DNA from: Escherichia coli
GTDB taxonomy: Bacteria; Pseudomonadota; Gammaproteobacteria; Enterobacterales; Enterobacteriaceae
NCBI RefSeq assembly: GCF_003991155.1
Contig: NZ_CP031293.1
Direction: 5' to 3' (one strand)
Length of the DNA: 64,000 nucleotides
A program made the translations under genes and the position numbers. The notes beneath the pieces were generated by a model, which was given only the letters and a program-made list of their open reading frames with translations, was not told the DNA's origin and searched no databases. Of the stretch, positions 18,865 to 60,618 are shown piece by piece (the stretch's first letter is position 1; every line of letters begins with the position of its first letter).

Positions 18865-19749
18865 TCAATCATGTATTTTTACAGCAAGACAACCACGAAC
18901 AAACTCAGGATTAAAATGTTTTACCGATTCCCCAACATAACCCAAATCTAGCGAACTAATTTGCGCCATTTCTTTCTCTGTCAGTGAGAAATCCCAGATA
19001 GCAAAATTTTCTTCGATACGCTGTTGATGTGTTGATTTCGGAATAACGACCACTCCCCGTTGAATATTCCAACGCAGAATGACCTGAGAAATCGATTTTT
19101 GATGGGCATCTGCAATACTCTGAAGCAGATTATTTTCAAAGGGTTTATGTCGTCCACCACCTAACGGAGCCCATGCTTCAGGCTGCACGTTATAATACTT
19201 CATGATTGCCAGCGCCTCTGGTTGGGCAAAATAGGGATGCAACTCGACCTGATTGACCATCGGTTTAACTCTTACCGTTTCACAAAAGTTCGCCAGAACA
19301 TGAGGGTAGAAATTGGAAACCCCAATCGCTTTTAATTTGCCCTCCTCATAGGCATCTTCGAGTGCACGCCACGCACTAAAATAATCGCGCATGGCCTGGT
19401 GCAATAAATAGAGATCGAAGTATTCTAGCCCCGATTTTTTTAATGATGCTTCAATACCTGCTGCTGCAATATCCTGATTCAACATATCCTGCACCCACAA
19501 TTTAGACGTTATAAATAACTCTTCTCGGGTACATAAACCTTCAGATATGGCTTCACGAACGGCTTCACCGACGGCATCTTCATTACCGTATACCGCTGCA
19601 GTGTCGATGAGTCGATAACCCGTGCGGATAGCATTCAACACTGACTGTTTGCACACGTCTTTATCGGTAACCTGAAAAACACCAAATCCCATCATCGGCA
19701 TTTTCAGATTGTTACTTAATACGGAAAATTCCACTGTCAGTCCCTCCAT
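18865..19749 (-). CDS. aldo-keto reductase
   Basis: 294 aa; AKR signature (GFGVFQ, IDTAAVYGNE, LHQ, IPKS). Confidence 0.85.
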   Translation of the reverse strand: MEGLTVEFSVLSNNLKMPMMGFGVFQVTDKDVCKQSVLNAIRTGYRLIDTAAVYGNEDAVGEAVREAISEGLCTREELFITSKLWVQDMLNQDIAAAGIEASLKKSGLEYFDLYLLHQAMRDYFSAWRALEDAYEEGKLKAIGVSNFYPHVLANFCETVRVKPMVNQVELHPYFAQPEALAIMKYYNVQPEAWAPLGGGRHKPFENNLLQSIADAHQKSISQVILRWNIQRGVVVIPKSTHQQRIEENFAIWDFSLTEKEMAQISSLDLGYVGESVKHFNPEFVRGCLAVKIHD

Positions 19750-19981
19750 TAGGTATGAACAATGAGTCTACGTTAAAACGTAACCTCAAATTAGTATGTG
19801 GATTTTGATATCACTTATGCAAAAAATTCATTAATAATGTAGGACTGAAACCTCTCTATTTTTGGGGCAATGAAGCAGACGCTATCAGTGCTTTTGCCTT
19901 GGGACTTGCTGTTTTTGATACACTTAGGGCCCAGGACATAACGAAAATGTGCGATATGACAAAGAATTAACGGAGTATGTG

Positions 19982-20839
19982 ATGATCAGGCAGAAGATTC
20001 TACAGCAGCTCCTGGAGTGGATTGAGTGTAATCTTGAGCACCCTATTTCAATCGAAGATATCGCACAGAAATCTGGCTACAGCAGACGCAACATCCAGCT
20101 TCTGTTCCGAAATTTCATGCATGTGCCTTTGGGAGAATACATTCGCAAACGAAGGCTTTGTCGTGCCGCCATTCTTGTCCGGCTCTCCGCGAAATCTATG
20201 CTTGATATTGCACTCTCTTTGCATTTTGATTCACAGCAATCATTCAGCCGCGAATTTAAAAAGTTATTCGGCTGCTCTCCCCGTGAATACCGCCACCGTG
20301 ATTATTGGGATCTCGCAAATATCTTCCCTTCTTTTTTAATACGTCAACAGCAAAAGACGGAGTGTAGATTAGTCAACTTTCCTGAGACACCTATTTTTGG
20401 CAATTCATTTAAATATGATATTGAAGTGTCGAATAAATCACCGGATGAAGAAGTCAAACTGCGACGTCATCATTTAGCCAGATGTATGAAGAATTTTAAG
20501 ACGGATATCTATTTCGTCTCCACGTTCGAACCGTCAACAAAATCGGTCGATTTGCTCACAGTTGAAACTTTTGCCGGTACGGTATGCAAACAAACCGATT
20601 CAGAGATGTCGAAAGAGTGGACAATTAACCGAGGACTGTATGCCTCTTTCCGCTATGAAGGTGAGTGGGAGCACTACCCTGAATGGGCGCGAAACCTCTA
20701 TCTGATGGAATTACCCGCCAGGAGGTTAGCCAGAATGAACGGCAGTGATATTGAGCGGTTTTATTACAATGAAGATTTCGTAGAAAAGGATAGCAATGAT
20801 GTTGTTTGCGAAATATTTATCCCTGTTCGTCCGGTTTAG
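19982..20839 (+). CDS. ykgA: AraC-family regulator with GyrI-like C-terminal domain (YkgA/Rob-like)
   Basis: ORF 19949-20839; start placed at MIRQKILQQLLEWIE (GGAG SD 5-6 nt upstream); N-terminal AraC double HTH, Rob-like layout. Confidence 0.75.
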   Translation: MIRQKILQQLLEWIECNLEHPISIEDIAQKSGYSRRNIQLLFRNFMHVPLGEYIRKRRLCRAAILVRLSAKSMLDIALSLHFDSQQSFSREFKKLFGCSPREYRHRDYWDLANIFPSFLIRQQQKTECRLVNFPETPIFGNSFKYDIEVSNKSPDEEVKLRRHHLARCMKNFKTDIYFVSTFEPSTKSVDLLTVETFAGTVCKQTDSEMSKEWTINRGLYASFRYEGEWEHYPEWARNLYLMELPARRLARMNGSDIERFYYNEDFVEKDSNDVVCEIFIPVRPV

Positions 20840-20963
20840 CCTGTAAATCCATCACATAAGATTTACCCTACCCTGCCACCGTCTAATCGGTACCAGGGTA
20901 GGTATTCAGTAAATAATGGCGCTGCGCATGTCAACGCCATTATTATTTATTACATCATCGCTT

Positions 20964-23900
20964 TTATTTCTCCTCAGCGCCTTCAGTATCTGCAGGAACG
21001 GCGTTAATTGTCACAGTCACTGGTTTCATTTCATACCCTCCATATGTCAAAGAGTTGAATGTGAATGTGTATGTACCTGGCTTGTTGGTACTAAATGTAC
21101 GCGTGATTTTCCCGTTCGCGAAATGGTCATTTTTCGACGGCAGGAACTGATAATCCGCCTCTGTCACCCCTTCCGGAGCCTCAATGTCGACCCACATGGT
21201 TCCTCCTACGGGGTTGACACCCGACATCAGAGTAACCGTCAGTGTTGCAGTTGTCTTCCCGTCCGCCACCAGAAAATCTACACGCTCTGGAGATGCAGCG
21301 AGCTCCGCGTTTTTATCATCCGCGACGAATTTAGATTCGGCAGTTTTCGTCGATTCCTGACCATCGGCCTGTTCCACTTTCGCCGTGAGTGTATATGTCG
21401 CTGCGACAGTGGTCGTGGCGGTGAAAATAGCCTGCCCTTGCTCATTCGTTGTCGCCGTCCCATTGGGAGTCAGAACTAAATTTTCCGGGCTGGCAGTCAG
21501 CGTCACTTCGCTATCTTTCAGCAGGTTGTTATTGGCATCAGTCACCGTAACTTTATACGTCTGTTTGGTTTTGCCATCCGCCACTGCACGGTTGCCAATC
21601 ACCTCAATACTGGAGATGGTCGCCGTAGTGTTATCGGCCACAAACGTTACAGACTGCGCATTCGAAGGCTGGTCATTTCCTGCTGACGCCGTGATCTCAT
21701 AGGTTCCGGCAGTCACGGAAACCACTTTCAGTTCCGCTTTACCCTCCTTGTCGGCGTTCACCATGATATTACCGTCTGCAAGCGGTTTGACGCCCCGAGG
21801 CAGATTAAAGACGACCACAGCGCCAGGAAGAAGGTTGCCGTATTGATCCTTAACCGTTGCCGTCAGCGTAAAGGCATCTTTGCCGTTTGCCACTTTTTGA
21901 GCAGCGGCGTCTACCTCCAGGCTCGCCTGACCGGTACTGAAATCCGCCTTGAATTTCACCTTGACCGTCTTCTGAGAGTTTTTCACCGAGGCCTCGATCT
22001 CAAGTTCCCCGGCAACCGTTGACATCAGCTCAATGTCAGCTTTACCTGCCGTATTGGTTGTTACCGTATTCCCCGTCTTGCTGGTCACGCCCTGCGGTAA
22101 AGTCAGCGTAACTTCTTGCCCCTGCAACGGGTTACCATAGCTGTCCACGACGGTCAGGGTTATCTGGTTAGCAGACTGTCCATTAGCCAGTTGGTTATTA
22201 ACCTTCACTGTCATATCACGAATCTCAGCCTTAGATGCGTCACCTGCAACGTTCAGCACCAGTGGCTGAGCAACGGCATTTTGGCCATTCACTCGCGGCA
22301 TCACAGACAACTGACCCGCGGCAGATCCCAGCGTTAAGGTCGCCACGTAGACCCCATTACTTTGCTCTGTCCAGCTTCCTGCTGAAGGTCGCTCACTCCC
22401 CGTGCTGGCGGCACCGCTAAACACTGGTGCATCGAGCTTCAGGCCACTAACAGGGTTCCCATACGCATCCTTCGCGGTGAAGGTAAGTTCCGTCGTCGCT
22501 TTGACGGTCGGAGCCTTATTGTCAGCAACAAGCGTAGAGTTCGCTGATGACATCTCCCCCGCAACGACAGTCAACCGCGCAGCATCGGTGGCTGCTGGCT
22601 GACCGTTGAATAGCGGCATAACGAGAAGCTCACCCGTCTTTCCCCCTGTGGTCAGCGTAGCGACATAGGAACCATCGCCCTGCTCGGTCCAGTTGGATAC
22701 CGTCGCCCCTTCAGACGCAGCACCCGTCAGGCTTGCCGACAGGGAAAGGCCACTGATAGCGTTGCCATGCGCATCTTTTGCAATAAGCGTCACGGTTGTG
22801 CTTTCGCCTGCTTTTACGCGGTCTGCGGCTACAGAGACTGTCGACTGGCCTGAAGATAACGCATCAGCCACCACGGTCACTTTAGCCGCATTCGCTGCCG
22901 CGTCCTGCCCATTGAGCTTCGGCATAACCTCTAATTCCCCCGCCGTAGTGCCGAGAGTAATCTGCGCAGTCCAGGTCCCGTCGCCATTATCCGTCCAGCC
23001 TGATGCCATAGACCCCGCAGCGGCTGCGCCAGATAATGACGGTGCATCTGGATTGAGGCCAATTACAGGGTTGCCATTGGCATCTTTTGCCGTCCAGATT
23101 GCCGTAAGCGTACCACCAACCACCGGTTTATCCGGATTCAGGGCGATGGTCGAATGTGCTGCATCAAGCGGCCCGGCGACAAACTTCAGCGTTTGTTGTA
23201 ATGAGCCCAACTGATACTGCTCGCTAAAGGCACGCACAACAACGTTTCCGGCACGGGTCGAAGAAACCGTGGCGCTGTAAACCCCTGGTTTTATTTCCGA
23301 AATGGCACCAATGGTTACACCATTAGTGTCTTGCGGAACAAGTCGCAGGCGGCTGGCTTCTCCCGTCACCGGATTACCCTCGGAGTCCACCGCTGTCAGT
23401 GTCAGCGTGTAGACTTGCTGACCATCAGCAACCACATCACCTGACGGCTCGTTAGCGCTCAGGGTGGAGTTTGCCACATCCATCATCGTGGCCCGCAGTT
23501 CTGCAGTGACAGTTTTGCTCATGTCATCAACGCTAACAGTAATCGTTGCCTCTCCTGACTGCGTTCCGGTAGTAAAGACAGACTGATACACCCCTGCTTC
23601 AGTTTCGGTGAACTCACCCAGTGTTGGCTTTGCCTGTGATTTAGTGGCCTTCAGGGTACGAGTCACAATATTTCCAGCCGGTTTGAACGTCAGCTCAGTC
23701 TTGATCTGATCTTTCATGCCCGTGACTGGCTGCCCCTCGGCGTCGCGCAGAGAAAGCACCAGTGGCTTTTGCTCACTACCGTTAGCAAGCATTTGAATAC
23801 GGCTCTGACCGTCAAGCGTTAACGCCGTGCGCTCGGCACTCATACCTGCTCCGGTAATGACCACCTCTGTCTGCACGTGTTTTGAGGCATTGCCTTTGTT

Positions 23901-25214
23901 ATCGTAGGCAACCGCAGAAATCGCATAATAATTGTCTTTGCCTGCCTGGTAAGCCGGGAGCGTCACTTGCCACTGATTGCCCTGCCCCGTAATTTTTCCG
24001 CCTGCGGCCAGCAAAGACGGCGCTTCCCATTGCACATTTTTCAGACCGTGAGTTGCTTTGCTGACCACAAGCCCCAGGGAAACCGTCTGGCCGCCCTTGC
24101 CTTCAATACGCTCAGGCAGAGCAATACGGATCACTTCAGATTTGCGATACTCAAGAACGATATTGTTATTACGCTCAACCAGGTCATAGCGGCTGCCTGC
24201 CAGCATTCGACGCTCGCGAATACTGTCTGTATCGAGTTGTTTTTCCAGAGGTTCGCCAATCCGATAATTAACTTCCAGGCCAAAGCGAGTGTCATTCTCA
24301 CCACTCTTGCCCTGCTTATGCCCGGCACTCAGGGTCAGAAGAGGCACTGGCGTGTAATTCACTTCAGCGGTAATCGCATGTGGATCTTTCTGGCGTTTAT
24401 CTTTACCAAACAGCCCGACTTCATCGCCATAATACTGTTCATACATCAGGCTTGCGCCAAGCTGCGGCCAGGCAGGTAAATAGCCCTCAGCACGAATATC
24501 CCAGCCATTCGCCGGGCGTTCCTGATAATCCTCAACATCCGGCGATTTTTTCCAGCCAGAAGCCCGGATATAACCATTGGCGCTCAGTTTCAAATAATCA
24601 CGCCAGTATTCCGCACCAACACCAATGCGGGTATGACTACGGGATAAATCATGATCGATAAAAGTATTCACCCCCGCCATCCAGTCATTTCCTGAAAAAT
24701 GACGCCAGCCAAAACCAATATTTGACTGAGTACGATCGTCGGTACGATGTATTGTCCCCTGAGTGAACAACATATTTGTCGGTGTATCATAAATCGGATA
24801 AAGCATTTCCAGCGAAGAATCCTTCAGCGAGAAATCTTTATCGACATTCAGTTTGACGCGCGCAGTACCGTATTTCCCGAGCCACTCCTGTATTTCCTGG
24901 TTAGCTTTAGCGGTGGCCATTCCGGTAATAAAATTACGTGTCGCATCGCTATCTGGCTGACTGCTTAAAAATGTCCCGGCATTTGCGGCAAACGACGCGA
25001 CATTTTTCTCCACGTTATTATCAGCAGTTACCGTAGTATTTCCCATGCTCAACCGTGGCTGAACCGCATGCTGCGCACGTGCCGCCATTACTGGGGTAAA
25101 GGTGACAGCGAGTGGAAAAAGAACCTGAACAGAGATATTTGCCCACGCCACGCAGCGGGCCAGAACTGAATAACGAAATTGTGGTTGTTTATGACCTATT
25201 TTATAACGTGACAT
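20964..25214 (-). CDS. eaeH: intimin/invasin-family inverse-autotransporter adhesin EaeH/FdeC, full length
   Basis: 1416-aa ORF; N-terminal beta-barrel region with intimin-like motifs (NIGFGWR, YDLVERNNNIVLEYRK) followed by many Big-like repeats. Confidence 0.9.
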   Translation of the reverse strand: MSRYKIGHKQPQFRYSVLARCVAWANISVQVLFPLAVTFTPVMAARAQHAVQPRLSMGNTTVTADNNVEKNVASFAANAGTFLSSQPDSDATRNFITGMATAKANQEIQEWLGKYGTARVKLNVDKDFSLKDSSLEMLYPIYDTPTNMLFTQGTIHRTDDRTQSNIGFGWRHFSGNDWMAGVNTFIDHDLSRSHTRIGVGAEYWRDYLKLSANGYIRASGWKKSPDVEDYQERPANGWDIRAEGYLPAWPQLGASLMYEQYYGDEVGLFGKDKRQKDPHAITAEVNYTPVPLLTLSAGHKQGKSGENDTRFGLEVNYRIGEPLEKQLDTDSIRERRMLAGSRYDLVERNNNIVLEYRKSEVIRIALPERIEGKGGQTVSLGLVVSKATHGLKNVQWEAPSLLAAGGKITGQGNQWQVTLPAYQAGKDNYYAISAVAYDNKGNASKHVQTEVVITGAGMSAERTALTLDGQSRIQMLANGSEQKPLVLSLRDAEGQPVTGMKDQIKTELTFKPAGNIVTRTLKATKSQAKPTLGEFTETEAGVYQSVFTTGTQSGEATITVSVDDMSKTVTAELRATMMDVANSTLSANEPSGDVVADGQQVYTLTLTAVDSEGNPVTGEASRLRLVPQDTNGVTIGAISEIKPGVYSATVSSTRAGNVVVRAFSEQYQLGSLQQTLKFVAGPLDAAHSTIALNPDKPVVGGTLTAIWTAKDANGNPVIGLNPDAPSLSGAAAAGSMASGWTDNGDGTWTAQITLGTTAGELEVMPKLNGQDAAANAAKVTVVADALSSGQSTVSVAADRVKAGESTTVTLIAKDAHGNAISGLSLSASLTGAASEGATVSNWTEQGDGSYVATLTTGGKTGELLVMPLFNGQPAATDAARLTVVAGEMSSANSTLVADNKAPTVKATTELTFTAKDAYGNPVSGLKLDAPVFSGAASTGSERPSAGSWTEQSNGVYVATLTLGSAAGQLSVMPRVNGQNAVAQPLVLNVAGDASKAEIRDMTVKVNNQLANGQSANQITLTVVDSYGNPLQGQEVTLTLPQGVTSKTGNTVTTNTAGKADIELMSTVAGELEIEASVKNSQKTVKVKFKADFSTGQASLEVDAAAQKVANGKDAFTLTATVKDQYGNLLPGAVVVFNLPRGVKPLADGNIMVNADKEGKAELKVVSVTAGTYEITASAGNDQPSNAQSVTFVADNTTATISSIEVIGNRAVADGKTKQTYKVTVTDANNNLLKDSEVTLTASPENLVLTPNGTATTNEQGQAIFTATTTVAATYTLTAKVEQADGQESTKTAESKFVADDKNAELAASPERVDFLVADGKTTATLTVTLMSGVNPVGGTMWVDIEAPEGVTEADYQFLPSKNDHFANGKITRTFSTNKPGTYTFTFNSLTYGGYEMKPVTVTINAVPADTEGAEEK

Positions 25215-25764
25215 TGAGATAATTTCCTGATGAACGAATTAACGAACATAGGCAGACACAAATAATGGCGTCTGCTTGTCAGAAAAACCGGGGATTTCCC
25301 GGTTTCCTTTTCCGCAGAAAAGGAAATACCTTTATGTAAGAAAGTACACCGCCACCTAATATATCCAGTGCCTGTAGCCTCTCATCAGGTGGTTGGGCGC
25401 GGGATTATATTTTTATTTATGGGTGAAAATTTAGCTTTTTGTGCAAGTCATTAAATAGATACCTAAGTTATATTTCTTACTCTGCGGACAGTGAATAATT
25501 CATTATTCAGAGTGAATAATAATGACCTGCCTTTAATTAGCAACTATTGGAAATACGTCGAAGTAGGTATATACGCCAGGATAAACCGATATATTTTTTA
25601 TGGATATTCATTTTCCTTCATCAGACTGTGAATTGCAGGGATATCGAACTTGCACGACTCATCGCAACACTCAAACAGATTTATGAATTTCGTTCATAAC
25701 CCCTGACAAATCCTGCCGTCTAATCGAGCTTTTCCCTTTACGTTATGCTTCTCATGAACGATAA

Positions 25765-28688
<2,924 letters not shown>

Positions 28689-28770
28689 CTAAACTTTCAG
28701 GAGATTTATTATGAATAAACGTATCCTCACGATTGCGCCATTCTTCTTACCGATATTCTGACACACATCA

Positions 28771-29697
28771 TTAACTTTCTATTTTTACTCTTTTCTCCAC
28801 CATAAAATCAATAAAAGCACGAACTTTAGAGGGCATTCTCACCCGTGATGAAACATATATATAAAATCCAGGAAATGAAACGGCCCAATCCTCAAGAATC
28901 GGCTGTAACTTGCCCGCATTGATATGCTCAGCGATTGCAAAATCCAGATGTTGAATGATACCCGTTCCATTCAGCGCCATTCGTATCATGCTTTCGTCAT
29001 CATTAGAAATATACTTACCTGACACCTCTATTTCGAACTCTTCATTACCCCCCACAACATTCGAAAACTCCCATGCTGAGAGTGCACCGCTACTTTTATG
29101 CCGCAACCGAAGACAATTATGGTTACTCAATTCCTGAGGAGTTTCAGGAATACCGTGTTCTTTTAAATAATCTGGCGATGCCACAGTAACCAGTTTAATA
29201 AGCGGAGAAACAGGAACGGCAGTCATATGCTCATCCAGTCCTTGCTCAAGACGTATGCCCACATCACAGCCGTCCGCAATAATGTTAGATAAACCGTCAT
29301 CCATAATGAGTTCTATCTTTGTTTTGGGGTAACGAGTAAGAAACTCGCCAATATGAGGCTCAACAAGCATCCGTGCTGCAACACGGGAGGAATTTATTCT
29401 CAACAGGCCTGTAGGTTCAAGTTGGGTATCACCAACATCTTTCAAAGCATCATCAATTTGCCCCAAAGCCGACACCAGCACTTCATACAGACGCTGTCCT
29501 TCCTCAGTAAGCGACATATTGCGGGTCGTACGGTATATCAGCTTGGTGTTAAGACGTTCCTCAAGAGATTTTAAATTCTGGGACAATGCGGCCCGCGTAA
29601 TACCCATTTCAGAAGCGGCTCTGGAAAAACTGCCGGCACGAACAATAAGCGCAAACCAGGCAAGAGAAGGCAAAATTGAAGGCTCTATTTTCATCAT
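28771..29697 (-). CDS. LysR-family transcriptional regulator
   Basis: ORF 28771-29760; start placed at MMKIEPS; LysR HTH (FSRAASEMGITRAALSQNLKSLE); divergent from hydrolase gene. Confidence 0.8.
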   Translation of the reverse strand: MMKIEPSILPSLAWFALIVRAGSFSRAASEMGITRAALSQNLKSLEERLNTKLIYRTTRNMSLTEEGQRLYEVLVSALGQIDDALKDVGDTQLEPTGLLRINSSRVAARMLVEPHIGEFLTRYPKTKIELIMDDGLSNIIADGCDVGIRLEQGLDEHMTAVPVSPLIKLVTVASPDYLKEHGIPETPQELSNHNCLRLRHKSSGALSAWEFSNVVGGNEEFEIEVSGKYISNDDESMIRMALNGTGIIQHLDFAIAEHINAGKLQPILEDWAVSFPGFYIYVSSRVRMPSKVRAFIDFMVEKRVKIES

Positions 29698-29853
29698 TGT
29701 AAACCTTAACTTAACACTGTGATAGATATTAGACCATTGATGATAACCAATACAAGTCATACTATTACGCCGTTCTCGATATGAACACGAATGCCAGTTG
29801 CGGATAATAGAAATGATATTTAAATCTGTTTAGGCAAATCCCCGGAGCTTGAA

Positions 29854-30774
29854 ATGAAAACTGTTTCGATAAAACATACTTACTGGGATATAGCTGCTGA
29901 TATCTATTTCCCTGACGATTTTAATAGTGAAAAAAAGTATCCTGCCATTATCAGCGCCCATCCAATTGGAAGCTGCAAAGAACAGACATCGGGTAGTGTG
30001 TATGGTGCCGCCCTGGCAAAAGCTGGCTTTATCGTCATTGCTTTTGATGCCAGTTTTCAGGGAAGCAGCGGTGGAGAACCGCGTTATCTGGAAGATCCAA
30101 CAATGCGAGTAAAAGACTTCAGCATTGTCGTTGATTATCTTACCAGCTTACCTTACGTTGATGCCGGGCGTATTGGTGTACTGGGTATTTGTGGTGGAGG
30201 TGGATATGCCATTAATGCCGCAATGACAGAACGTCGAATTAAAGCTATTGGTACTGTCACGGGTGCAAACTACGGGCGTCTTATGCGTGAGGGATTTACA
30301 GCGTTTAATCCTATCGGAGCACTCGAAGCAATGGCGCAACAAAGAACAGACGAAGCTAACGGCGCAAAACTTCGCGTAGATGATTTGCTCCCTTCTTCTC
30401 CGGAAGCAGCTCTTGAAGCGGGATTAACAGAAATAGACCTTTTTGAAGCAACAGAATATTATCGTTCGCCACGAGGCTGTGCACCTAATGGGGTAAATCG
30501 TTCGCTATTCTCACATCAGACTGTTGCCGTGGGTTGGGATGCATTTCATCTTGCAGAAGTCCTGTTAACTCAACCAATAATGGTTGTGGTGGGCGATAGA
30601 GTGGGCGCATTTGGTGCCTACCGTGACGGCTGCGAAATTATTGGCCGCGCTGCCTCAAAACATAAAGAGCTGGTCGTGGTTGAAGGTTATTCACATTACG
30701 ACCTGTATGATAAGCCAGAACCTGTGAAACAGGCACTCGACAAATTAATTCCTTTTTATAAAACACATTTGTAA
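29854..30774 (+). CDS. alpha/beta hydrolase (dienelactone-hydrolase-like)
   Basis: 306 aa; nucleophile-elbow-like GICGGG motif and alpha/beta hydrolase-like layout. Confidence 0.7.
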   Translation: MKTVSIKHTYWDIAADIYFPDDFNSEKKYPAIISAHPIGSCKEQTSGSVYGAALAKAGFIVIAFDASFQGSSGGEPRYLEDPTMRVKDFSIVVDYLTSLPYVDAGRIGVLGICGGGGYAINAAMTERRIKAIGTVTGANYGRLMREGFTAFNPIGALEAMAQQRTDEANGAKLRVDDLLPSSPEAALEAGLTEIDLFEATEYYRSPRGCAPNGVNRSLFSHQTVAVGWDAFHLAEVLLTQPIMVVVGDRVGAFGAYRDGCEIIGRAASKHKELVVVEGYSHYDLYDKPEPVKQALDKLIPFYKTHL

Positions 30775-31018
30775 TAATCTTACAGGGAGATTCCTTATCT
30801 CCCTGACATTTATCCTTTATTGACTACACAACAATAATAAAATTACTCAAAAAGAAATTTCATTAAAGAAACAGAAAAGCAGCAACTCAATTATTAAGAT
30901 TATTAGAAACCCTTTGAAGGAATTATAAATAAAGCCATAATTCTTGGTTCCAAAGCTGGCAACAACTAACCAGTTAAAACATACGCATCAAAATCAGATA
31001 AACATTTGAGGTATTGTT

Positions 31019-32161
31019 ATGACAAATAAACACCCATCATTGTTTTCTCCTTTTATGCTGACAGAAAAAATAAAGCTACGTAATCGTATCGTTATGGCTC
31101 CTATGACGACCTGGTCAGCGAATCCTGATGGAACCATCTCTGAGCAAGAACTCGAATTTTATAAACGTCGCTCACAAAATGTTGGTTTAGTAATAACAGG
31201 ATGCACCTATGTCACGCCAAGCGGCATTGGGTTTACTCATGAATTTGCCGCGTATGACGACCGTTTCATTAACAGCCTTGAAAAGTTAGCAGCTGCAGCC
31301 AAAAGTGGCGGTGCTCCGGCTATTTTGCAGATTTTCCACGCCGGTAATAAAGCCATCCCGGAGCTTGTGCCAAATAACGATGTTATTAGTGCCAGCGCAT
31401 CAAGCGTAAAATCTGGTGACTTTATGAAGAGAGTGGTACAAAGCAGGGAAATGACTGAAAACGAAATTCAGGAAACCATTAGAGCATTCGGAGATGTCAC
31501 AAAAAGGGCGATTAAAGCAGGTTTTGATGGCGTTGAACTTCATGGTGCGCACGGATTCCTTCTGCAGAATTTCTTCTCCCCTCTATTTAACCAGCGTAAT
31601 GACCGATGGGGAGGAGATCTCGAAGGACGTATGCGCTTCCCGCTGGCCGTATTACAGGAAGTAAAAAATGTAGTCTATGAATATGCGACAAAGCCCTTTG
31701 CCATCGGTTACAGAATATCTCCTGAAGAATCTGCAACAGGGGGGCTGCGGATAGAGGATACTTATAAACTCCTTGATCGGCTCATTTCATCCGGTATTTC
31801 GTATATACATACCTCACTGGTCAGTATTAACGATAGCTACCCTGTTGAGTCGCCAAATGGCCCCCGAACTATTGAATTGATTTTAAATCATATTGCAGGC
31901 AGAGTGCCGGTAATCGCTGCAGGTAAAATACGCACACCGTCTCAGGCTCAAGAAGCAATTTCCACTGGCCTGCCACTTGTTGCGATCGGTAAAGGGCTGG
32001 TGATAAATCCAGAATGGGTGACTTTAGCTGAATCAGGTAGAGACCATGAAATTCAAACAACCCTTAATCCACAACTTGTTCATGAATTAACCATTCCGGA
32101 TAAACTATGGGATCAAATTCAGACATCGAAAGGAACTGGCTGGTTTCCGTTAATGGATTAA
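31019..32161 (+). CDS. NADH:flavin oxidoreductase, Old Yellow Enzyme family
   Basis: 380 aa; OYE-type TIM-barrel motifs (RIVMAPMTT, HGAHGFLLQNFFSP). Confidence 0.85.
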   Translation: MTNKHPSLFSPFMLTEKIKLRNRIVMAPMTTWSANPDGTISEQELEFYKRRSQNVGLVITGCTYVTPSGIGFTHEFAAYDDRFINSLEKLAAAAKSGGAPAILQIFHAGNKAIPELVPNNDVISASASSVKSGDFMKRVVQSREMTENEIQETIRAFGDVTKRAIKAGFDGVELHGAHGFLLQNFFSPLFNQRNDRWGGDLEGRMRFPLAVLQEVKNVVYEYATKPFAIGYRISPEESATGGLRIEDTYKLLDRLISSGISYIHTSLVSINDSYPVESPNGPRTIELILNHIAGRVPVIAAGKIRTPSQAQEAISTGLPLVAIGKGLVINPEWVTLAESGRDHEIQTTLNPQLVHELTIPDKLWDQIQTSKGTGWFPLMD

Positions 32162-42024: not shown

Positions 42025-42231
42025 ATATGCAATAATTAATTGCACTGCCCCGCCAGCTATAATCGCGGGGCTTCGTTTTTCAGGGATAACAAAACCCGAA
42101 ACTTCTTCCATCTGCCAGCAACAATGCCTCTTCCTCTATAGTGTTCTCCGGATCTACAGCATCCTGAAGTAGCGCGATGTACTCACTGGCTATCTGCCAT
42201 CAGAAAGTTAAAAACAATGTTTTTAACCTAT

Positions 42232-42260
42232 AAAAATGGCGCTGTATTTGCGCCATTTTT
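42232..42260. terminator. bidirectional intrinsic terminator between convergent ykgJ and yagU
   Basis: AAAAATGGCGC-TGTATTT-GCGCCATTTTT: hairpin flanked by A-run and T-run, so it works on both strands. Confidence 0.6.
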
Positions 42261-42273
42261 ATCATTCAATGCA

Positions 42274-43276: not shown

Positions 43277-43474
43277 TCCGCTTGCCATTTTCGAACAGCT
43301 GATTGGTTTAGTCCGGTGTTTCCCTGCTTGCACTTAAAAATGAGCGGATGGGAAACTCTCGAAATGGTTCGTCGATATGCTCACCTTTCAGTCAGGCATT
43401 TCACCGCGCACGCGAGCAAAATCAAAGGCACAAGAGGAGAACGTAGTTTACTGAAATGTGAGGTAACTTATTGA
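43277..43474 (+). pseudogene. possible C-terminal fragment of a tyrosine recombinase (integrase remnant)
   Basis: Frame translates ...GWETLEMVRRYAHLSVRHF..., resembling the catalytic-Tyr C-terminal motif (ERYAHL) of phage integrases; no N-terminal part present; ends 6 bp before the attR-like repeat. Confidence 0.3.
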
Positions 43475-43480
43475 TTTAAA

Positions 43481-43496
43481 TGGTGCGATAATAGGA
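43481..43496. repeat. attR-like imperfect direct repeat of the thrW 3' end (TGGTGCGATAATAGGA)
   Basis: Matches the tRNA 3' end at 63061-63077 (TGGTGCCGATAATAGGA) except for a 1-nt deletion; same orientation. Confidence 0.55.
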
Positions 43497-43557
43497 ACAA
43501 TACACATAGGCGATAAGCTTTGTTTTTGTTGCCTTTTTTATTGTTCATTTTTTATAG

Positions 43558-43580
43558 ATACCCCCAAAAGTACCCCCATA
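43558..43580. repeat. island-terminal 23-mer ATACCCCCAAAAGTACCCCCATA (putative arm-type integrase site)
   Basis: 22 of 23 identical to 62927-62949 at the other island end, same orientation. Confidence 0.5.
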
Positions 43581-43697
43581 TCTTTTTCCGCCCCTGAAAT
43601 TTGGTTGTTATTCATACAGCATATCAGGCGGTAACGCTCTCCCTTTAACCCACTTATTGTATGATAGTGCTATCCCACAATAAGGAATCAGCCAGCC

Positions 43698-44057
43698 ATG
43701 AGAATGACCAGTCGCAAAAAAGAGATACTTAGCTACTTTGAACCGGATAACCTCGAATGGGTGACTGGTGAGATTGGTGCGCCGCCGTTCGATGTGTCGG
43801 GTGTGGCCTACCTGCTTCATGGCATGGTGTCGTTCGATAAGCGTCACCAGCTCGAATCAACCCGGCGAACACTGGAAAGCATGGTTGCTGGTGGACTGCT
43901 TGAGCGGGTGACAGTGTATGAATCGCGCCAGATACGGCGCGGCGGTGATACTAACGCAACGGTCGTGCGCTACGGTTTACCCGGTCAGTGCGCTGTTATG
44001 CGCGATACTGGCGGCGCTGACAACGCAATATCAGGTGAATACATGCGGGTCAGTTAA
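43698..44057 (+). CDS. hypothetical protein (119 aa), first island gene at the attR side
   Basis: ORF with AAGGA SD; upstream inverted repeat CTTATTGT..ACAATAAG; 3' end overlaps the convergent gene by 8 bp. Confidence 0.5.
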   Translation: MRMTSRKKEILSYFEPDNLEWVTGEIGAPPFDVSGVAYLLHGMVSFDKRHQLESTRRTLESMVAGGLLERVTVYESRQIRRGGDTNATVVRYGLPGQCAVMRDTGGADNAISGEYMRVS

Positions 44058-44592
44058 TAGCCTGCAATCTGTCGTTGATGCGGCTCAGGTCGTAAACCCG
44101 GCGTTCAATATCCAGCATCAGGAAATTGTGGATCTCGGCCTGCTCAGGATTATCAGACTCTCTGGCCTGTAATAGCAATTCATTGTAACCATGCAAGCCG
44201 CCTGAGTTTTCCGCCGGGGTGGTGCCTTTCCCACGCAGGCAGCTAATGGGCTGATTACTCGTATCGTGTGTTTGCTTCTCCAGCACAATGACGCAATCCC
44301 ACCAGTCGCCAAAGTCATACGTGTAAACCAGCTTGTCACCCTCATTCTGGAGCGCCGCCCATAGTGGCGTGATTGCCGCGTTACCCATGCTTTCATCCTC
44401 ACCCCATACGCGATACTCGCTACCTGGATCACCTTTACGCCCTTTCTCGAACATATACAGGTGTTCGTCATTCCAGCCAAAAGCTAACTGGATCACGGCA
44501 TGAAGTTTACTAAAGGGGATTTGCTCTGGAACCAGCACACGCCGCCATATAGGTGGTTTGCTGTCTCGGATGGTTATCTTTAGCTGGTACAT
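44050..44592 (-). CDS. pRiA4b ORF-3-like family protein (180 aa)
   Basis: N-terminal motif YQLKITIRDSKPPIWRRVLVP as I recall for the PRiA4_ORF3 domain family; function unknown. Confidence 0.6.
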   Translation of the reverse strand: MYQLKITIRDSKPPIWRRVLVPEQIPFSKLHAVIQLAFGWNDEHLYMFEKGRKGDPGSEYRVWGEDESMGNAAITPLWAALQNEGDKLVYTYDFGDWWDCVIVLEKQTHDTSNQPISCLRGKGTTPAENSGGLHGYNELLLQARESDNPEQAEIHNFLMLDIERRVYDLSRINDRLQAIN

Positions 44593-44712
44593 GCAAATCC
44601 TGAATAAATGCGAATCGGAAGGATAACGATACTGACGTACTCACAATTCTGTAAAGGTGAATAAAGGAAATTTGCTTAATACGCATAAGTTACATGTGGA
44701 ATAATCCCATAT

Positions 44713-44898
44713 CTACCTGCGCGGCGCTGGCTTCTTCCACTGGTAGGCAGGTGCTCGCATCATTTCGCGGAACCTGTCGCGCCGGGCTATATCGGCATTA
44801 ACTGATCGTTCTATCTCCCGTTGATCTGCCTGTGTAAGCTGGTGGCCTCCGTGCTCAAGTTTGGCGATGGTCAATAAGGCTATTTCGCGTGGTGTCAT
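44713..44898 (-). CDS. hypothetical small protein (61 aa)
   Basis: ORF with AGAGGG SD-like sequence; no recognisable domain. Confidence 0.35.
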   Translation of the reverse strand: MTPREIALLTIAKLEHGGHQLTQADQREIERSVNADIARRDRFREMMRAPAYQWKKPAPRR

Positions 44899-45123
44899 AC
44901 GTCATACCCTCTGGAAGGATGAAACACGCCCGGATTAAATTTCATTTTTCGCGGGTATAAAAAAACGATGGGGCGGGCAGTCCCGGATAGTCAGGGCTGT
45001 AGAGATTTGACTACCCCCTCCCCACTGGATTCAGGTTACTGCTATTCCGTTAAGCGCTGCTTACGGGGATAGCTGCGTTGTGATTTTGACCATTCAGGTC
45101 GCCGCTATTTCCTCACCGATTGG

Positions 45124-45156
45124 GTGCTACGCGCGCGCGTACTTGTCCCGAAATAC
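45124..45156. repeat. copy 1 of repeat TGCTACGCGCGCGTACTTGTC..AAATA.CAG (contains palindrome ACGCGCGCGT)
   Basis: Near-identical to 46518-46550; related partial copies at 46755-46770 and 46807-46835. Confidence 0.6.
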
Positions 45157-45195
45157 CAGAAACCGCCAGCCAGAGGATGATTTCCCTCTGGTGGT

Positions 45196-45477
45196 CTACC
45201 TTTGCCTCTTGCCGCCATTTAACCGGAAGGCGTTACCGTTCGGTTGCGCTATCCCCATGCGGTGTTGCGTTTCGGTAACAGCTTTATGCAGGTCGCCAAA
45301 TTCCTCAACCTTCACGGGCGGGCGCTTCACGTTCTCCAGACACGTTTCACGGCGGCGCTTTATCCATTCCCGATCATCGTCCTCGGTGCATAACAGCATG
45401 ACTTCCATCCATCGTGCGGCAGCTCTCCGGTATAGCCCTTTTGACTCCAGCTCTTCAGCTTTCCTGTCCCTTATCAT
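45196..45477 (-). CDS. PerC-family transcriptional activator-like protein (93 aa)
   Basis: N-terminal motif MIRDRKAEELESKGLYRRAAARWMEVM resembles PerC/Pch family as I recall it; GAGG SD and TATAAT -10 upstream. Confidence 0.5.
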   Translation of the reverse strand: MIRDRKAEELESKGLYRRAAARWMEVMLLCTEDDDREWIKRRRETCLENVKRPPVKVEEFGDLHKAVTETQHRMGIAQPNGNAFRLNGGKRQR

Positions 45478-45513
45478 TTCTGCCTCTCAGATTATATAGA
45501 TAAGCAAAAAGGT

Positions 45514-45634
45514 GTTGGTTCAGTTGGTTCAGTTGGTTCAATTTGTAAAGATCGTTGTTTTTATTGTGTTTTTTCTGAAATGTTGAACCAACATCAACTC
45601 ATTTTGAACCAACACAGCCCAGCTCTGAACCAAC
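45514..45634. repeat. iteron module A: 3 tandem GTTGGTTCA, AT-rich spacer, 3 copies of the complementary TGAACCAAC
   Basis: Copies at 45514-22, 45523-31, 45532-40 and complementary copies at 45584-92, 45605-13, 45626-34. Confidence 0.7.
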
Positions 45635-45736
45635 AACACAGCGATAGCTTTGTGATTGGTCCGTTATTTTCTGGCTGATATTTGAGCGTATAACAGTGTT
45701 ATACAGTGGTATACTGTATGGATATTACTCACTGAT

Positions 45737-46192
45737 ATGGTCTTTGCAATGAGCAAATCTAATCTGATCGCGTTCCGCATCCCATCTGAATTGCAGGATG
45801 AGTTTAATCGGTCTGTTCTCGCTTCTGGAGGGGATAAAACCTCCTGGCTTGTTGATGCGATTCGCATGAAGCTGGGACAGCCGGAAAAGTCTATTGATTC
45901 ACGAATGCTTGGGCTGGTGGAGCGCATGGAAAAAGCCGCTGCGTCGCTTATTGCCGGAAAGCCGAACATCCCACCAAAGCCATATAACGAAACGGCAGTT
46001 ATAAAGATCATTGCCGATACCATCCAACAGGGATTTGATAATGGGCGTGTGATAGCTGAACGGATCAATGAAGCAGGCTATCAAACAAAAGCTGGTAAAG
46101 CGTGGGATAAAGATATTTACAGCGCGTGGAAGCGTCAGGGAAGCAATGCTGAAAAGTTAAAAGCGGTGATTGATTGTAAGGTCAGCGTATAA
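45737..46192 (+). CDS. putative ribbon-helix-helix (CopG/Arc-like) DNA-binding protein with extended C-terminus (151 aa)
   Basis: N-terminal IAFRIPSELQDEFNRSV...KTSWLVDAIRMKL resembles an RHH beta-strand plus helix; start may be the Met at 45749. Confidence 0.45.
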   Translation: MVFAMSKSNLIAFRIPSELQDEFNRSVLASGGDKTSWLVDAIRMKLGQPEKSIDSRMLGLVERMEKAAASLIAGKPNIPPKPYNETAVIKIIADTIQQGFDNGRVIAERINEAGYQTKAGKAWDKDIYSAWKRQGSNAEKLKAVIDCKVSV

Positions 46193-46271
46193 ACATGAGT
46201 GCCCATTGGAAAGCTGCTTGGGCCAATACCTTTATACACCAGCAGGTGGTGACGATAGGTGAGGATTAGGC

Positions 46272-46493
46272 ATGAAAGGCAGAACGCCACACATTGAACA
46301 TCAAGCCAACCACTTCTCGGATGTTCGCAATGAGATGATTGCCATTCGCGGTGATATGCACGGCTTGGAGCGTCGAATTATTGATAAGATTGATGAAAAT
46401 AGAGATAAGGCCAGTGAAAATCAAAAGTGGATCATCGGCCTGTTGATTTTATCAATTCTTATCCCGCTACTTATCGCATTGGTCACAAAATGA
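46272..46493 (+). CDS. small tail-anchored membrane protein (73 aa)
   Basis: GAGGA SD; charged coiled-coil-like N-terminus and single C-terminal TM helix (WIIGLLILSILIPLLIALV). Confidence 0.5.
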   Translation: MKGRTPHIEHQANHFSDVRNEMIAIRGDMHGLERRIIDKIDENRDKASENQKWIIGLLILSILIPLLIALVTK

Positions 46494-46517
46494 ATATCCA
46501 ATGTGTATGCTGTCGAT

Positions 46518-46550
46518 GCTACGCGCGCGTACTTGTCGCAAAATATCAGG
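46518..46550. repeat. copy 2 of the ACGCGCGCGT-ACTTGTC repeat
   Basis: TGCTACGCGCGCGTACTTGTCGCAAAATATCAG, near-identical to copy 1. Confidence 0.6.
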
Positions 46551-46754
46551 CAAAGGCCAGATTCAGAAATTCGTGATAACCACCAGCACAACATGAGAGG
46601 TCATGTAACGCGATTTATCACACCAGATACATGTGATTGGTGTACCCGCATAAAACATCGTCATAGCGCGTCCTGTGCGCATATACGCCGATAATCAACA
46701 CATCACCACCACTCTGTCTCATGTAGAGAACAGTTTTATGGTACTCCCCTCCAT

Positions 46755-46835
46755 CGTGCGCGTACTGGTCGGACGTAGTTGCAAAATTTTTTGCAACTGA
46801 TACCCCTCGCGCGCGTACTGGTCACGAAATTGGTG
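46755..46835. repeat. copies 3 and 4 (partial) of the GCGCGCGTACTGGTC repeat flanking palindrome GTTGCAAAATTTTTTGCAAC
   Basis: CGTGCGCGTACTGGTC at 46755-46770; CGCGCGCGTACTGGTCACGAAATTGGTG at 46807-46835; 20-bp perfect palindrome at 46777-46796. Confidence 0.5.
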
Positions 46836-47036
46836 TTTTGCTGTGGCAGTGATATCAGAAAAATCTTCCTGTTTCACATAAAGCGGATATGCGCGTAATG
46901 TAACGGCCCCATCAACTGGGAGCGGATTTGAGCCCGAATGTGTAGGCAATGTCACTTAACGTTTGTCGCATACCTTCCAGAAAAAGCGATTCATGAATAA
47001 TAGGGGCATGAATGCCCGGCGTACCGGGCTTATTAG

Positions 47037-47735
47037 TTAATTTGGTGCTTTAGGGTCAACATTAAAAGTTATATCACCTTCTGTATTTTTCCCGGCATAG
47101 CTAGCGGCTATTCTCGCCAACCCTTTGTAATCAGCAATTCCATCAGACTGTTGCGAGACGACTGAGCTACCAACTTTCCATAACATATTAATCTGCCGAT
47201 TATTGAGATAAGCCTTGGCATCAAACGACTGGAGTATCACCCCTGCGCCGTAGAACGTGTCCGTCACAGTTGTGTTATACGCGCCAGTAATTCCATAAGT
47301 AGGCGTATAAACTGTTGTTGCCGTTCCAGTGGTATTAGCTGTACCGTAGCCACCACCATAACTATTGAACGTGGTGTTCGAGTTTCCGTACGTTGTTGCT
47401 GAGCTCACACCAGTTTGCCCGTATATTGGGATGGTTACATTACGAGTATTTGAAATGGCCCCGCTTCTCAAAAAGTTCAAGAGAATTACCTGGTCAGCCA
47501 ATTTTTCATCTTTAACTTGTGTATATCCTTGGCTTGATAAACTGGCGGCTACTACCGTAGCTATTTGAGTGTATTCAATCTGTTTGGTGTTCCAAAGTTC
47601 TTGGCTTGCGGGGATGATCAAGAACTTCTTACCGACAGATTGCCCGGAAGATAAAGCATTGACCGTTACTAACGGTTTTTGTACGCATCCAGCCAATAAT
47701 GACAGGGATAATATTAAAAGAAGATTTTTAATCAT
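47037..47735 (-). CDS. lipoprotein (232 aa) with Gly/Thr/Tyr-rich central region
   Basis: Lipobox LLAGC in signal peptide MIKNLLLILSLSLLAGCVQ; low-complexity middle; tandem hairpins downstream of the stop. Confidence 0.7.
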   Translation of the reverse strand: MIKNLLLILSLSLLAGCVQKPLVTVNALSSGQSVGKKFLIIPASQELWNTKQIEYTQIATVVAASLSSQGYTQVKDEKLADQVILLNFLRSGAISNTRNVTIPIYGQTGVSSATTYGNSNTTFNSYGGGYGTANTTGTATTVYTPTYGITGAYNTTVTDTFYGAGVILQSFDAKAYLNNRQINMLWKVGSSVVSQQSDGIADYKGLARIAASYAGKNTEGDITFNVDPKAPN

Positions 47736-47885
47736 GATAATCTCACCTAAGAATTGCGTGGTTATAAATTATCATCACTGTAAGCGAATGTAAGCCACAG
47801 GCTCGTAATGTGATATGGAATTTTGATAGTTGGCTCAATATCAGTATGCCGTCCTTGGCTATTATGGTTTTGTTAGTTAGAGCGT

Positions 47886-50612: not shown

Positions 50613-51922
50613 CCCTTAAGTTTTGCCTGATAGTAACTTTCCGGCAGATAGCCATGTGCGGTCACATAATCCTTAACCAGTGAAGGATCCTGCAACAGCA
50701 TTTTGGTATCAGTTTCTTCGTCCTTAGATTTGGTTACAGGAATACCGAGCCCGGCAATCTGTCGTTTCTGCATTCGAATAATTACGTCCTGCGCTTTATT
50801 CAACTCTCGCAAAAATGCCTCATTGCTGGTTGCTGACTTAATGCCATTTTGAGATTGCATAAGGGCAGCCCTTTCCCCTTCGGTTGGGTTAGAGCCAAAA
50901 GTCCCTTTGAGGCTAGGCAGAATAACCTTTAGGTTGTATTCATCAGCTTTGGCGCGTAGGCTTCGTGTGTCTTCTGCTACATCAGGAAGGAATCCAAACC
51001 CCAGCGTCAGGGGGTTATAGTTCTGCGAGCGGGTAACGGCCGAAGGATGTTTCCCTACAATTCCCGCCAGTTCATGACCCACTTCAAGCGCAGAGTTCAA
51101 GGAGTCGATGTTACCTACAACAGTATTAATTTTATCGTTCATCTTCTCCACTTTCGCCTGCTGTACCTTGCTCAGTTCAGCATTGAGCTTGTCTCTCTCG
51201 ATGTCATTTTGAGCACGTCCAAGTCGTGCTTTCAGAACCATTTCTCTCGTGCGTAGTTGGTTATCGGATAGGACTTTGAACTGCTCCATATCGAGACGTC
51301 GATTACCCTGTTCCGCATTAACCTGAGCATTATATGCGGATGTATCTGCGTTCTGCTGTGCAATGCTCTGCCCTTGCTGCTTCTCTTGAACACTAAAGTA
51401 ACTATTTGGATCAGCATGGAGGTGGATGAGGTCAGTGATTCTGTTGAATTCCTGTGGGTCATTCTGCCAAGACTGATAAACCTCTTCAGCAGGAAGACCA
51501 AATCGCTGTAATACTGGATTTGCCTGCTGAATGGCCTTCTGCATGGTCAGTGGATCTCCAGTTTGTGACGCAAGACGCAGATTCATGGCAGCGTCAGCGG
51601 TCTGTCGATTTTGCTCAGCATCAATGAATCCCATCTGTTTTTGAGAATCAGCCATAAACTGGGGATACTGGGCCATTAACTTCTGCACGCCAACACGATC
51701 ATTATTAGCTACCGCACTACCCAACCGTGCCTGATATTCTTTTAACTGCTGGGAAATTTGCGCCTGCTGATTAATCTCAGCAACGCCTCTTAGCCCCTGT
51801 AGCGCCATTAAACCTACGTTTGGCTGCTGCTGATACTGCACAGGCTGAGGAACGGAAGAACGAGGAGCATTATCATTTTGCGGTGCCATGCTAGGCAGCC
51901 CGCCAAGTTGCCATGTCGCCAT
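50603..51922 (-). CDS. Gln-rich coiled-coil protein (439 aa), co-transcribed with the SLT protein
   Basis: Long ORF, translationally coupled on both sides; Q/A/N-rich helical composition. Confidence 0.7.
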   Translation of the reverse strand: MATWQLGGLPSMAPQNDNAPRSSVPQPVQYQQQPNVGLMALQGLRGVAEINQQAQISQQLKEYQARLGSAVANNDRVGVQKLMAQYPQFMADSQKQMGFIDAEQNRQTADAAMNLRLASQTGDPLTMQKAIQQANPVLQRFGLPAEEVYQSWQNDPQEFNRITDLIHLHADPNSYFSVQEKQQGQSIAQQNADTSAYNAQVNAEQGNRRLDMEQFKVLSDNQLRTREMVLKARLGRAQNDIERDKLNAELSKVQQAKVEKMNDKINTVVGNIDSLNSALEVGHELAGIVGKHPSAVTRSQNYNPLTLGFGFLPDVAEDTRSLRAKADEYNLKVILPSLKGTFGSNPTEGERAALMQSQNGIKSATSNEAFLRELNKAQDVIIRMQKRQIAGLGIPVTKSKDEETDTKMLLQDPSLVKDYVTAHGYLPESYYQAKLKGWQ

Positions 51923-53054: not shown

Positions 53055-53070
53055 GCGATGCCATCCATTT

Positions 53071-53232: not shown

Positions 53233-53248
53233 AACGCCCCCCTTAGAA

Positions 53249-53264
53249 CTGTATAAAACAACAG
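53249..53264. promoter_or_regulatory. candidate LexA (SOS) box CTGTATAAAACAACAG
   Basis: CTGT-N8-ACAG with AT-rich centre; about 17 bp upstream of the 53-aa gene start; nearby TATAAT-like hexamer on the minus strand. Confidence 0.5.
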
Positions 53265-53792: not shown

Positions 53793-53817
53793 ACCTTTTC
53801 TACGCACATGAAGAAGC

Positions 53818-57266: not shown

Positions 57267-57276
57267 GGCTCCATCC

Positions 57277-60606: not shown

Positions 60607-60618
60607 TTTCAGTCTCCG

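Follow-up and report, generated by a model that had tools for sequence, protein, structure and literature searches.

The fdeC locus and its neighbourhood

The window, that is the whole 64,000-nt stretch of E. coli DNA that was analysed, carries the following features at and around fdeC (eaeH):

19949..20839, plus strand: ykgA-like helix-turn-helix (HTH; AraC/GyrI-like) regulator gene, convergent with fdeC, intact in the window but a pseudogene in K-12
20867..20902, no strand: inverted repeat (arms of 15 nt, loop of 6 nt) within the 124 nt that separate the stop codons of the convergent fdeC and HTH genes
20964..25214, minus strand: fdeC (eaeH) coding sequence, 1416 aa, intact, with an ATG start and no internal stop
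25215..25779, minus strand: divergent intergenic region with the fdeC promoter and leader, 565 nt, AT-rich
25780..32069, no strand: divergent neighbour cluster of two aldo/keto reductases (AKR), two LysR regulators, an alpha/beta hydrolase and an NADH flavin oxidoreductase

The first-pass annotation had placed here an uninterrupted 1416-aa reading frame for an EaeH/FdeC adhesin, and the frame was recovered exactly as described, on the minus strand, which that annotation had left unstated. The identity of the gene is likewise borne out by its Pfam domains, by RefSeq, which annotates identical DNA as fdeC, by the match to PDB entry 4e9l and by alignment to the reference FdeC of ExPEC IHE3034 (ECOK1_0290, WP_000092542.1; partial structure PDB 4e9l; Nesta et al. 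2012, PMC3324786). Intactness, domain order and orthology are direct results of the analysis: the gene is an unremarkable, full-length fdeC, a well-known and already described surface adhesin gene of E. coli. Its GC content is 52.5%, against 48.2% for the whole window.

The gene occupies its conserved position, flanked by regulators and by reductases/hydrolases and lying between the ecp/ykgMO and the rcl/ykgEFG genes, and the gene order (AKR genes, fdeC, HTH gene, AKR, rclCBA) is that of IHE3034. The cluster beside fdeC was described as the 'fdeC cluster' by Nesta 2012 (PMC3324786). The AKR/LysR cluster at 25780..32069 is also present in IHE3034, is absent from K-12 and survives only as remnants in O157:H7, O104:H4 and 81EVA. 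The sequence NZ_CP029747.1 is colinear with positions 1-43496 of the window. On the other side of the gene, the inverted repeat at 20867..20902 is a candidate bidirectional terminator, by inference only; having no T-run, it was not listed by the terminator scan. Attachment repeats for a thrW island were also considered and dropped, as only a single 12-mer, possibly due to chance, was found.

Architecture of the protein

24165..24989, minus strand: IAT_beta barrel region (aa 76-350), Pfam PF11924

The Pfam comparison recovers nearly the whole IAT_beta profile (PF11924, profile positions 3-279 of 279, E 1.7e-110) at aa 76-350, and, downstream of aa 350, nine Invasin_D3 and five Big_1 stretches that follow one another as tandem Ig-like domains to the C-terminus. 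The DNA of the gene shows a periodicity of 306-309 nt, which fits Ig-like domains of about 102 aa. The protein thus has the organisation of an inverse autotransporter, an N-terminal IAT barrel with a Big-domain passenger on its C-terminal side. The barrel is 98.9% identical to that of IHE3034. In the PDB comparison it also hits 4e1t and 4e1s, the barrel structures of invasin and intimin, and the crystallised FdeC fragment 4e9l matches aa 595-1008 (E 1.3e-238). By inspection only, the N-terminus resembles a signal peptide, with a basic start and the hydrophobic stretch ISVQVLFPLAVTFTPVMA; the putative signal peptide would span aa ~1-47 and end in AARA/Q, with an A-R-A motif near aa 45-47.

Lineage of the allele

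22215..23114, minus strand: central passenger segment (codons 701-1000), divergent and diagnostic of the phylogroup F/ST457 allele

The locus is 100% identical in the strains MRY15-117, MRY15-131 and CREC-544, which belong to ST457 (PMC5430464, PMC5884925), a sequence type of phylogroup F (PMC9780897). The central passenger segment, which falls within the crystallised fragment aa 595-1008, is at least 99% identical in 33 records, 96.4-98.1% identical in 12, and at most 93% identical in about 4580. Among the 12 are the phylogroup F references IAI39 and CE10. Because of the complete identity to the ST457 strains, and because the central segment is otherwise shared only with the class of IAI39 and CE10, the allele is, judged by its sequence, of ST457/phylogroup F type. 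We are highly confident that the gene is the full-length chromosomal fdeC of a wild-type E. coli strain and that its allele is the one characteristic of ST457/phylogroup F; no observation speaks against this reading.

The divergence of this segment might alternatively mean that it was recently acquired from a source other than E. coli, in which case the protein would be a novel chimeric adhesin. Its dS is about 0.22-0.39 against the seven other alleles sampled, and about 0.33-0.39 against six of them, while the flanking segments show a dS of 0.03-0.1 against the B2 alleles, and only 45 of 4628 records reach at least 95% identity to it. However, in a comparison made within E. coli, IAI39, CE10 and ten other records carry the segment at 96.4-98.1%, which argues for an established phylogroup F allele class and not for a private import, and all alleles are colinear here, without indels. 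We have accordingly rejected a foreign origin as a private import, and consider the chimeric reading so improbable as to be negligible. As to the ST457/phylogroup F allele itself, its N-terminal 100 aa are closer to O157/K-12-type alleles than to B2 alleles, so that it is a mosaic.

Upstream region and leader

25215..25337, minus strand: leader with three consecutive hairpins, MFE -44.7 kcal/mol, z -5.9

The next gene upstream is the divergent aldo/keto reductase gene starting at 25780. About 560 bp of AT-rich DNA had been reported from the first reading of the sequence, and the intergenic region indeed measures 565 nt at 38.4% GC, within the lowest 5% of all 565-nt segments of the window. A primer used to clone the promoter, CTATTTAATGACTTGCACAAAAAG (PMC11143625), maps to 25458..25435. 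Regulation of fdeC by H-NS and temperature is attributed to EHEC in the work of Easton et al. 2014, as cited in PMC6714894. The promoter and terminator scans gave counts of 7 against 5.4 in shuffled sequence and of 5 against 5.1; since neither count shows an excess, no promoter was assigned. An invertible switch or other phase variation was ruled out, as neither meaningful tandem repeats nor inverted repeats flanking a promoter turned up. The Rfam search of the upstream region returned nothing at the gathering score and one match at chance level (E 0.67).

Between phylogroups, the 270 promoter-proximal nt show 98-99% conservation. Within them, the second leader hairpin reads ACCGGG-AAAUC-CCCGGU and is followed by a U-run, and an AGGA Shine-Dalgarno sequence lies about 10 nt upstream of the ATG. 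Among 9 strains the leader hardly varies, and those substitutions that fall in its stems retain G-U pairing; it is nearly invariant across phylogroups, whereas the coding sequence diverges by 4-10%. It is conceivable, if rather doubtful, that this leader of about 130 nt (25215-25337), one of whose three hairpins is terminator-like, is a cis-acting regulatory RNA, a transcription attenuator or a thermosensor, adding to the known induction of FdeC by temperature and host contact; if so, it would be a layer of FdeC control beyond H-NS, so far undescribed.

Distribution and functional status

If the gene is counted as intact when at least 80% of the coding sequence lies in one piece (a coverage-based definition), about 85% of the complete E. 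coli genomes (4585/5426) carry an intact fdeC; in the other 15% or so it is missing or truncated. Full-length copies are also found in the commensals HS and SE11 (PMC3324786). An intact gene had been taken to imply a non-K-12, possibly pathogenic background. The first half of this claim stands, given flanking core DNA only 97-98% identical to MG1655 and an allele of phylogroup F type; the hint of pathogenicity is uninformative, because full-length fdeC is the norm and occurs in those two commensals. Intact fdeC is thus unusable as a marker of pathogenicity, and its presence says no more of the strain than that it is wild-type E. coli other than K-12. The finding has little significance beyond annotation, namely that the window comes from such a strain with an ST457/phylogroup F-type fdeC. 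ST457 itself is a globally spread, multi-host and often multidrug-resistant lineage.

It should be considered whether the frame, intact as it is, might belong to a cryptic adhesin gene that is functionally dead in this lineage, or silenced there for good, and that has simply not decayed yet. Such a gene would be consistent with the poor expression of fdeC in laboratory culture (Nesta 2012, PMC3324786), with an AT-rich upstream region of the kind expected of silencing and with the genomes in which the gene is lost or truncated. However, over the 1416 codons dN/dS is 0.15-0.24 against seven alleles, at an overall dS of up to 0.27, which indicates purifying selection acting in the long term; the conservation of the barrel and of the promoter-proximal 270 nt, and a central segment essentially identical in 33 lineage-mates, also speak against decay. 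A silent gene is consequently very unlikely. The alignment to a functional FdeC proposed in the first-pass annotation revealed no frameshift or truncation: all residues are aligned with IHE3034 FdeC (1416/1416 aa, 0 gaps, 96.3% identity) in the same domain order. From this gap-free alignment together with the dN/dS values, the product of fdeC looks functional.

Adhesion, binding of collagens I, III, V and VI and induction upon host contact were demonstrated for FdeC in IHE3034 (PMC3324786), and its TAM-assisted assembly and 10 Big domains have been described (PMC4943183). If the ST457-type product behaves like these published orthologues, it would be a type Ve (inverse autotransporter) adhesin that crosses the inner membrane by means of its N-terminal signal sequence; the beta-barrel of aa 76-350 would then insert into the outer membrane, assisted by BAM/TAM, and the C-terminal passenger, a chain of some ten Ig-like domains, would be threaded outward to the cell surface, where it may bind collagens and epithelial cells and promote biofilm. 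By analogy with the regulation published for EHEC and ExPEC, H-NS probably keeps transcription from the 565-nt AT-rich region low, with relief by temperature or host contact. For this allele, collagen and epithelial adhesion and display induced by host contact are what we infer by orthology only, and its ligand specificity is assumed to be that of IHE3034.

Comparison with known systems

24339..25214, minus strand: part of the coding sequence surviving in K-12 MG1655 (codons 1-292), eaeH pseudogene
20643..24338, no strand: segment replaced by IS3A in K-12

Intimin (Eae) and Yersinia invasin have the same type Ve architecture as FdeC, an N-terminal IAT barrel with an Ig-like passenger. FdeC differs from them in its much longer passenger and in the location of its gene outside the LEE island, and it scores 394 bits against the NCBIfam intimin model, far below the cutoff of 1400. 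In the Pfam search (E up to 0.001) it also has no LysM domain and no intimin/invasin C-terminal receptor-binding domain, the lectin-like domain that binds Tir or integrin.

In K-12 the gene is a pseudogene (PMC3324786). The first reading had described it as fragmented by an IS element; the pseudogene does abut IS3A, but it arose by truncation with deletion and there are no two surviving halves. What MG1655 retains of the orthologue (eaeH, b0297) is codons 1-292 together with 551 nt upstream of them, and the nucleotide identity over this stretch is 96.9%. IS3A takes the place of codons 293-1416 (1124 codons), of the 124-nt gap beyond them and of the 3' end of the neighbouring ykgA-like regulator gene, so that the adjacent ykgA is truncated as well. 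On the other side of fdeC, K-12 also lacks the 6.3-kb AKR/LysR cluster.

EHEC O157:H7 and ETEC H10407 carry EaeH/FdeC as a full-length orthologue at the same locus. The O157:H7 protein has 1417 aa and is 90.4% identical to ours, with one 1-aa gap, two extra C-terminal residues and a strongly divergent C-terminal third (75-79% identity in some 100-aa windows); the AKR gene beside it is a remnant. Across six other alleles, aa identity ranges from 90.4 to 96.3%, and the literature gives more than 91% for FdeC orthologues.

IHE3034 has, besides the same domain order, equal chromosomal neighbours and the conserved upstream leader. The 53 aa differences from its FdeC cluster in two stretches with 90-92% identity, aa 1-75 and aa 700-1000, and 32 of them lie inside the crystallised fragment aa 595-1008 (92.3% identity). 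FdeC has been proposed as a broad E. coli vaccine antigen, and a mildly useful point in this respect is the identity of only ~92% between the phylogroup F allele and the IHE3034 vaccine and crystal fragment.

The fdeC gene and its surroundings

The first-pass annotation described an uninterrupted adhesin gene encoding 1416 aa, preceded by about 560 bp of AT-rich DNA. Its coordinates and length match ours exactly, and the only detail omitted was the strand.

20964..25214, minus strand: fdeC (eaeH) open reading frame in the ORF listing, 1416 aa, ATG start
25215..25779: intergenic gap upstream of fdeC, 565 nt

No internal stop was found in the full 1416 codons. Upstream, the closest gene encodes an aldo/keto reductase (AKR), is transcribed divergently and starts at 25780. 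The gap before it has a GC content of 38.4%, against 52.5% in the CDS and 48.2% in the window, a value within the bottom 5% for 565-nt windows of the stretch. Gene order is that of the ExPEC strain IHE3034: ecp operon, ykgMO, flavin oxidoreductase, hydrolase, two LysR genes, two AKR genes, fdeC, HTH regulator, AKR, rclCBA-rclR and ykgEFG. The stop codons of fdeC and the convergent HTH regulator gene lie 124 nt apart, and the gap between them holds an inverted repeat with 15-nt arms (20867-20902), which may be a terminator shared by the two genes; it has no T-run and is absent from the terminator-scan calls. Tandem repeats and invertible-switch-like repeats were looked for around fdeC and none were found.

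Protein identity and predicted function

Pfam recognised the whole beta-barrel domain of inverse autotransporters at aa 76-350 (PF11924, E 1.7e-110) and, behind it, nine stretches of Invasin_D3 and five of Big_1, and reported neither a LysM domain nor an intimin/invasin C-terminal domain. In the PDB comparison aa 595-1008 matched the FdeC fragment 4e9l (E 1.3e-238), and the barrel matched 4e1t and 4e1s, the invasin and intimin barrels. Judged by its sequence, the product is a relative of the inverse autotransporters intimin, IatC, Ilp, SinH and YchO, yet none of them, since all NCBIfam matches to these proteins scored far below the curated cutoffs. Of the 5426 complete E. coli genomes compared by megablast, 5146 contain the locus, and RefSeq names it throughout 'fdeC: inverse autotransporter adhesin FdeC'.

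Architecture, orthology and intactness of the gene are established here, and the orthologue literature allows its mode of action to be predicted. FdeC would be exported by Sec, and by inspection its N-terminus resembles an extended signal peptide; the barrel would be inserted into the outer membrane with the assistance of BAM/TAM, with a passenger of ~100 kDa of Ig domains probably exposed on the surface (PMC4943183). As for the orthologue, expression would be induced on host contact, and the protein would bind collagens I, III, V and VI and epithelial cells (PMC3324786). It may also promote biofilm, as orthologue work summarised in PMC4943183 suggests.

Upstream region and leader

Regulation by H-NS and temperature would be expected from the title of Easton 2014, cited in PMC6714894 and PMC4943183, and the 565-nt region, being AT-rich, fits such predicted H-NS control. 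Consensus promoter matches in the upstream region were no more numerous than in shuffled sequence. The region is more conserved than the CDS, with a mean column identity of 97% in nine strains; over the 270 nt nearest the ATG, identity to the window is 97.8-99.3%, also in K-12. The leader (25215-25337, minus strand) hardly varies among nine strains drawn from several phylogroups, although their CDS diverges by 4-10%. For the 141 nt that end just within the CDS, the predicted fold has three hairpins and an MFE of -44.7 kcal/mol, against an average of -25.6 for shuffled controls (z = -5.9). Hairpin 2, ACCGGG-AAAUC-CCCGGU followed by UUUUCU, is terminator-like; its stem carries two C to T substitutions, one shared by K-12 and 81EVA and the other by AJ5 and O104:H4, each of which keeps a G-U pair, and the sole change in hairpin 1 lies in the loop. 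An Rfam search of the leader and upstream region returned no family match. True covariation is absent because the variation is so slight, leaving a regulatory leader as a hint, not a finding.

Comparison with K-12

In MG1655, eaeH (b0297) is annotated as an 888-nt pseudogene running into IS3A (insE1/insF1), followed by a ykgA pseudogene. BLAST of this region against the window showed that K-12 retains window 25765..24339, that is the upstream region and codons 1-292, at 96.9% identity. Homology picks up again only at 20642, so that IS3A stands in place of 3696 nt comprising codons 293-1416, the 124-nt gap between the two genes and the ykgA-like gene's 3' end. The IS element that the first-pass annotation placed in K-12 is thus involved, not as a fragmentation of the gene; it is a truncation with deletion, the distal 79% being lost rather than displaced, a loss already reported by Nesta et al. 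(PMC3324786).

K-12 also lacks a 6.3-kb cluster (25766..32069) that encodes two AKRs, two LysR regulators, an alpha/beta hydrolase and an NADH flavin oxidoreductase, as well as another AKR gene (18994..19718). Both are present in IHE3034, and O157:H7, O104:H4 and 81EVA keep just a remnant of the cluster's first gene adjoining fdeC. Two sheep isolates, SX4 and SX48 (NZ_CP142398.1 3751366-3758102), carry the identical fdeC allele and a 1336-bp IS3-family insertion; annotation suggests that it splits the ykgA-like regulator (equivalent to window ~19949-20839) into a GyrI-like and an HTH piece. An IS element would then have struck beside fdeC twice, independently, here adjoining the K-12 IS3A position.

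Strain background and allele

The 5.4-kb fdeC locus recurs at 100% identity in ~30 complete genomes, whose sources are humans, cattle, poultry, pets and wastewater. Among them, MRY15-117, MRY15-131 and CREC-544 were published as ST457 (PMC5430464, PMC5884925), an emerging phylogroup F clone (PMC9780897). Strain 2016C-3878, with an identical locus, is colinear with window 1-43496 at 99.98-99.997% identity; to MG1655, the flanking core DNA shows just 97.3-98.1% identity.

Most E. coli alleles show 90-95% nucleotide identity to this one, and at least 99% is reached in only 34 records. The alignments show a mosaic allele: aa 1-100 are 97-98% identical to O157/K-12-type alleles versus 93-94% to B2 alleles, and aa 1001-1416 are B2-like (97-100%). 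The central 900-nt segment (codons 701-1000) is unlike all seven sampled alleles (dS 0.22-0.39) and falls inside the crystallised fragment; over aa 595-1008 identity to IHE3034 is 92.3%. This segment is found at 99% or more in 33 records, at 96.4-98.1% in 12 more and at no more than 93% in ~4580. The 12 include the phylogroup F reference strains IAI39 and CE10, and on this identity among E. coli records we assign the segment to the phylogroup F allele class rather than to an exotic import.

Other features of the window

An integrative element of ~19.6 kb (43427-63062) adjoins the tRNA-Thr/proA (thrW) site and also carries Icd-like, ash and AntA/B genes.

~47885-51921: P22-like DNA-ejection and lytic-transglycosylase genes
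~53817-56573: TOPRIM/DUF927 primase
58996-59083: C4 antisense RNA
59146-59223: isrK
~61680-62894: tyrosine integrase
63064-63136, minus strand: tRNA-Thr

A 20.5-kb query holding the element is covered to at least 80% in 48 complete E. coli genomes. A search for att repeats at the element found no clear repeat. At thrW, the otherwise near-identical ST457 genome 2016C-3878 has another island instead, 13.5 kb long and encoding a major capsid protein. The yagU/ykgJ-ecpE area holds a full-length match to Rfam IS009 (42067-42268, minus strand), which scores 191.7 bits where the gathering score is 117 and looks like an unremarkable conserved E. coli RNA candidate locus.

Meaning of an intact fdeC

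Frameshifts inside the gene, or a truncation by comparison with functional FdeC, had been named beforehand as evidence against intactness; both were searched for and neither was found. The alignment to IHE3034 is full-length and gap-free, six other alleles (including O157:H7 and O104:H4) are 90.4-96.3% identical with at most 3 gap columns, and dN/dS against the seven alleles is 0.15-0.24 (Nei-Gojobori); fdeC is therefore intact, and it is under purifying selection.

By coverage, 4585 of 5426 complete genomes (~85%) have at least 80% of the CDS at a single location. In published surveys, 67% of 126 genomes had a complete gene, PCR gave a product of the right size for 83% of ECOR strains (PMC6714894), and fdeC was present in 83-100% of isolates in most categories, commensal/fecal included (Table 1 of PMC3324786); commensals such as HS and SE11 carry it full-length (PMC3324786). 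Since the gene is intact in most genomes and in commensals, its intactness rules out K-12 and is uninformative on pathogenic potential. Of the proposed non-K-12, possibly pathogenic or commensal wild-type background, the first part holds, specifically as an ST457/phylogroup F-type background; the hint of pathogenicity does not, intactness being the species norm. The gene is correctly identified, in its normal state and already well described, and its product equals the characterised FdeC of IHE3034 in length (1416 versus 1416 aa), with 0 gaps and 96.3% identity.
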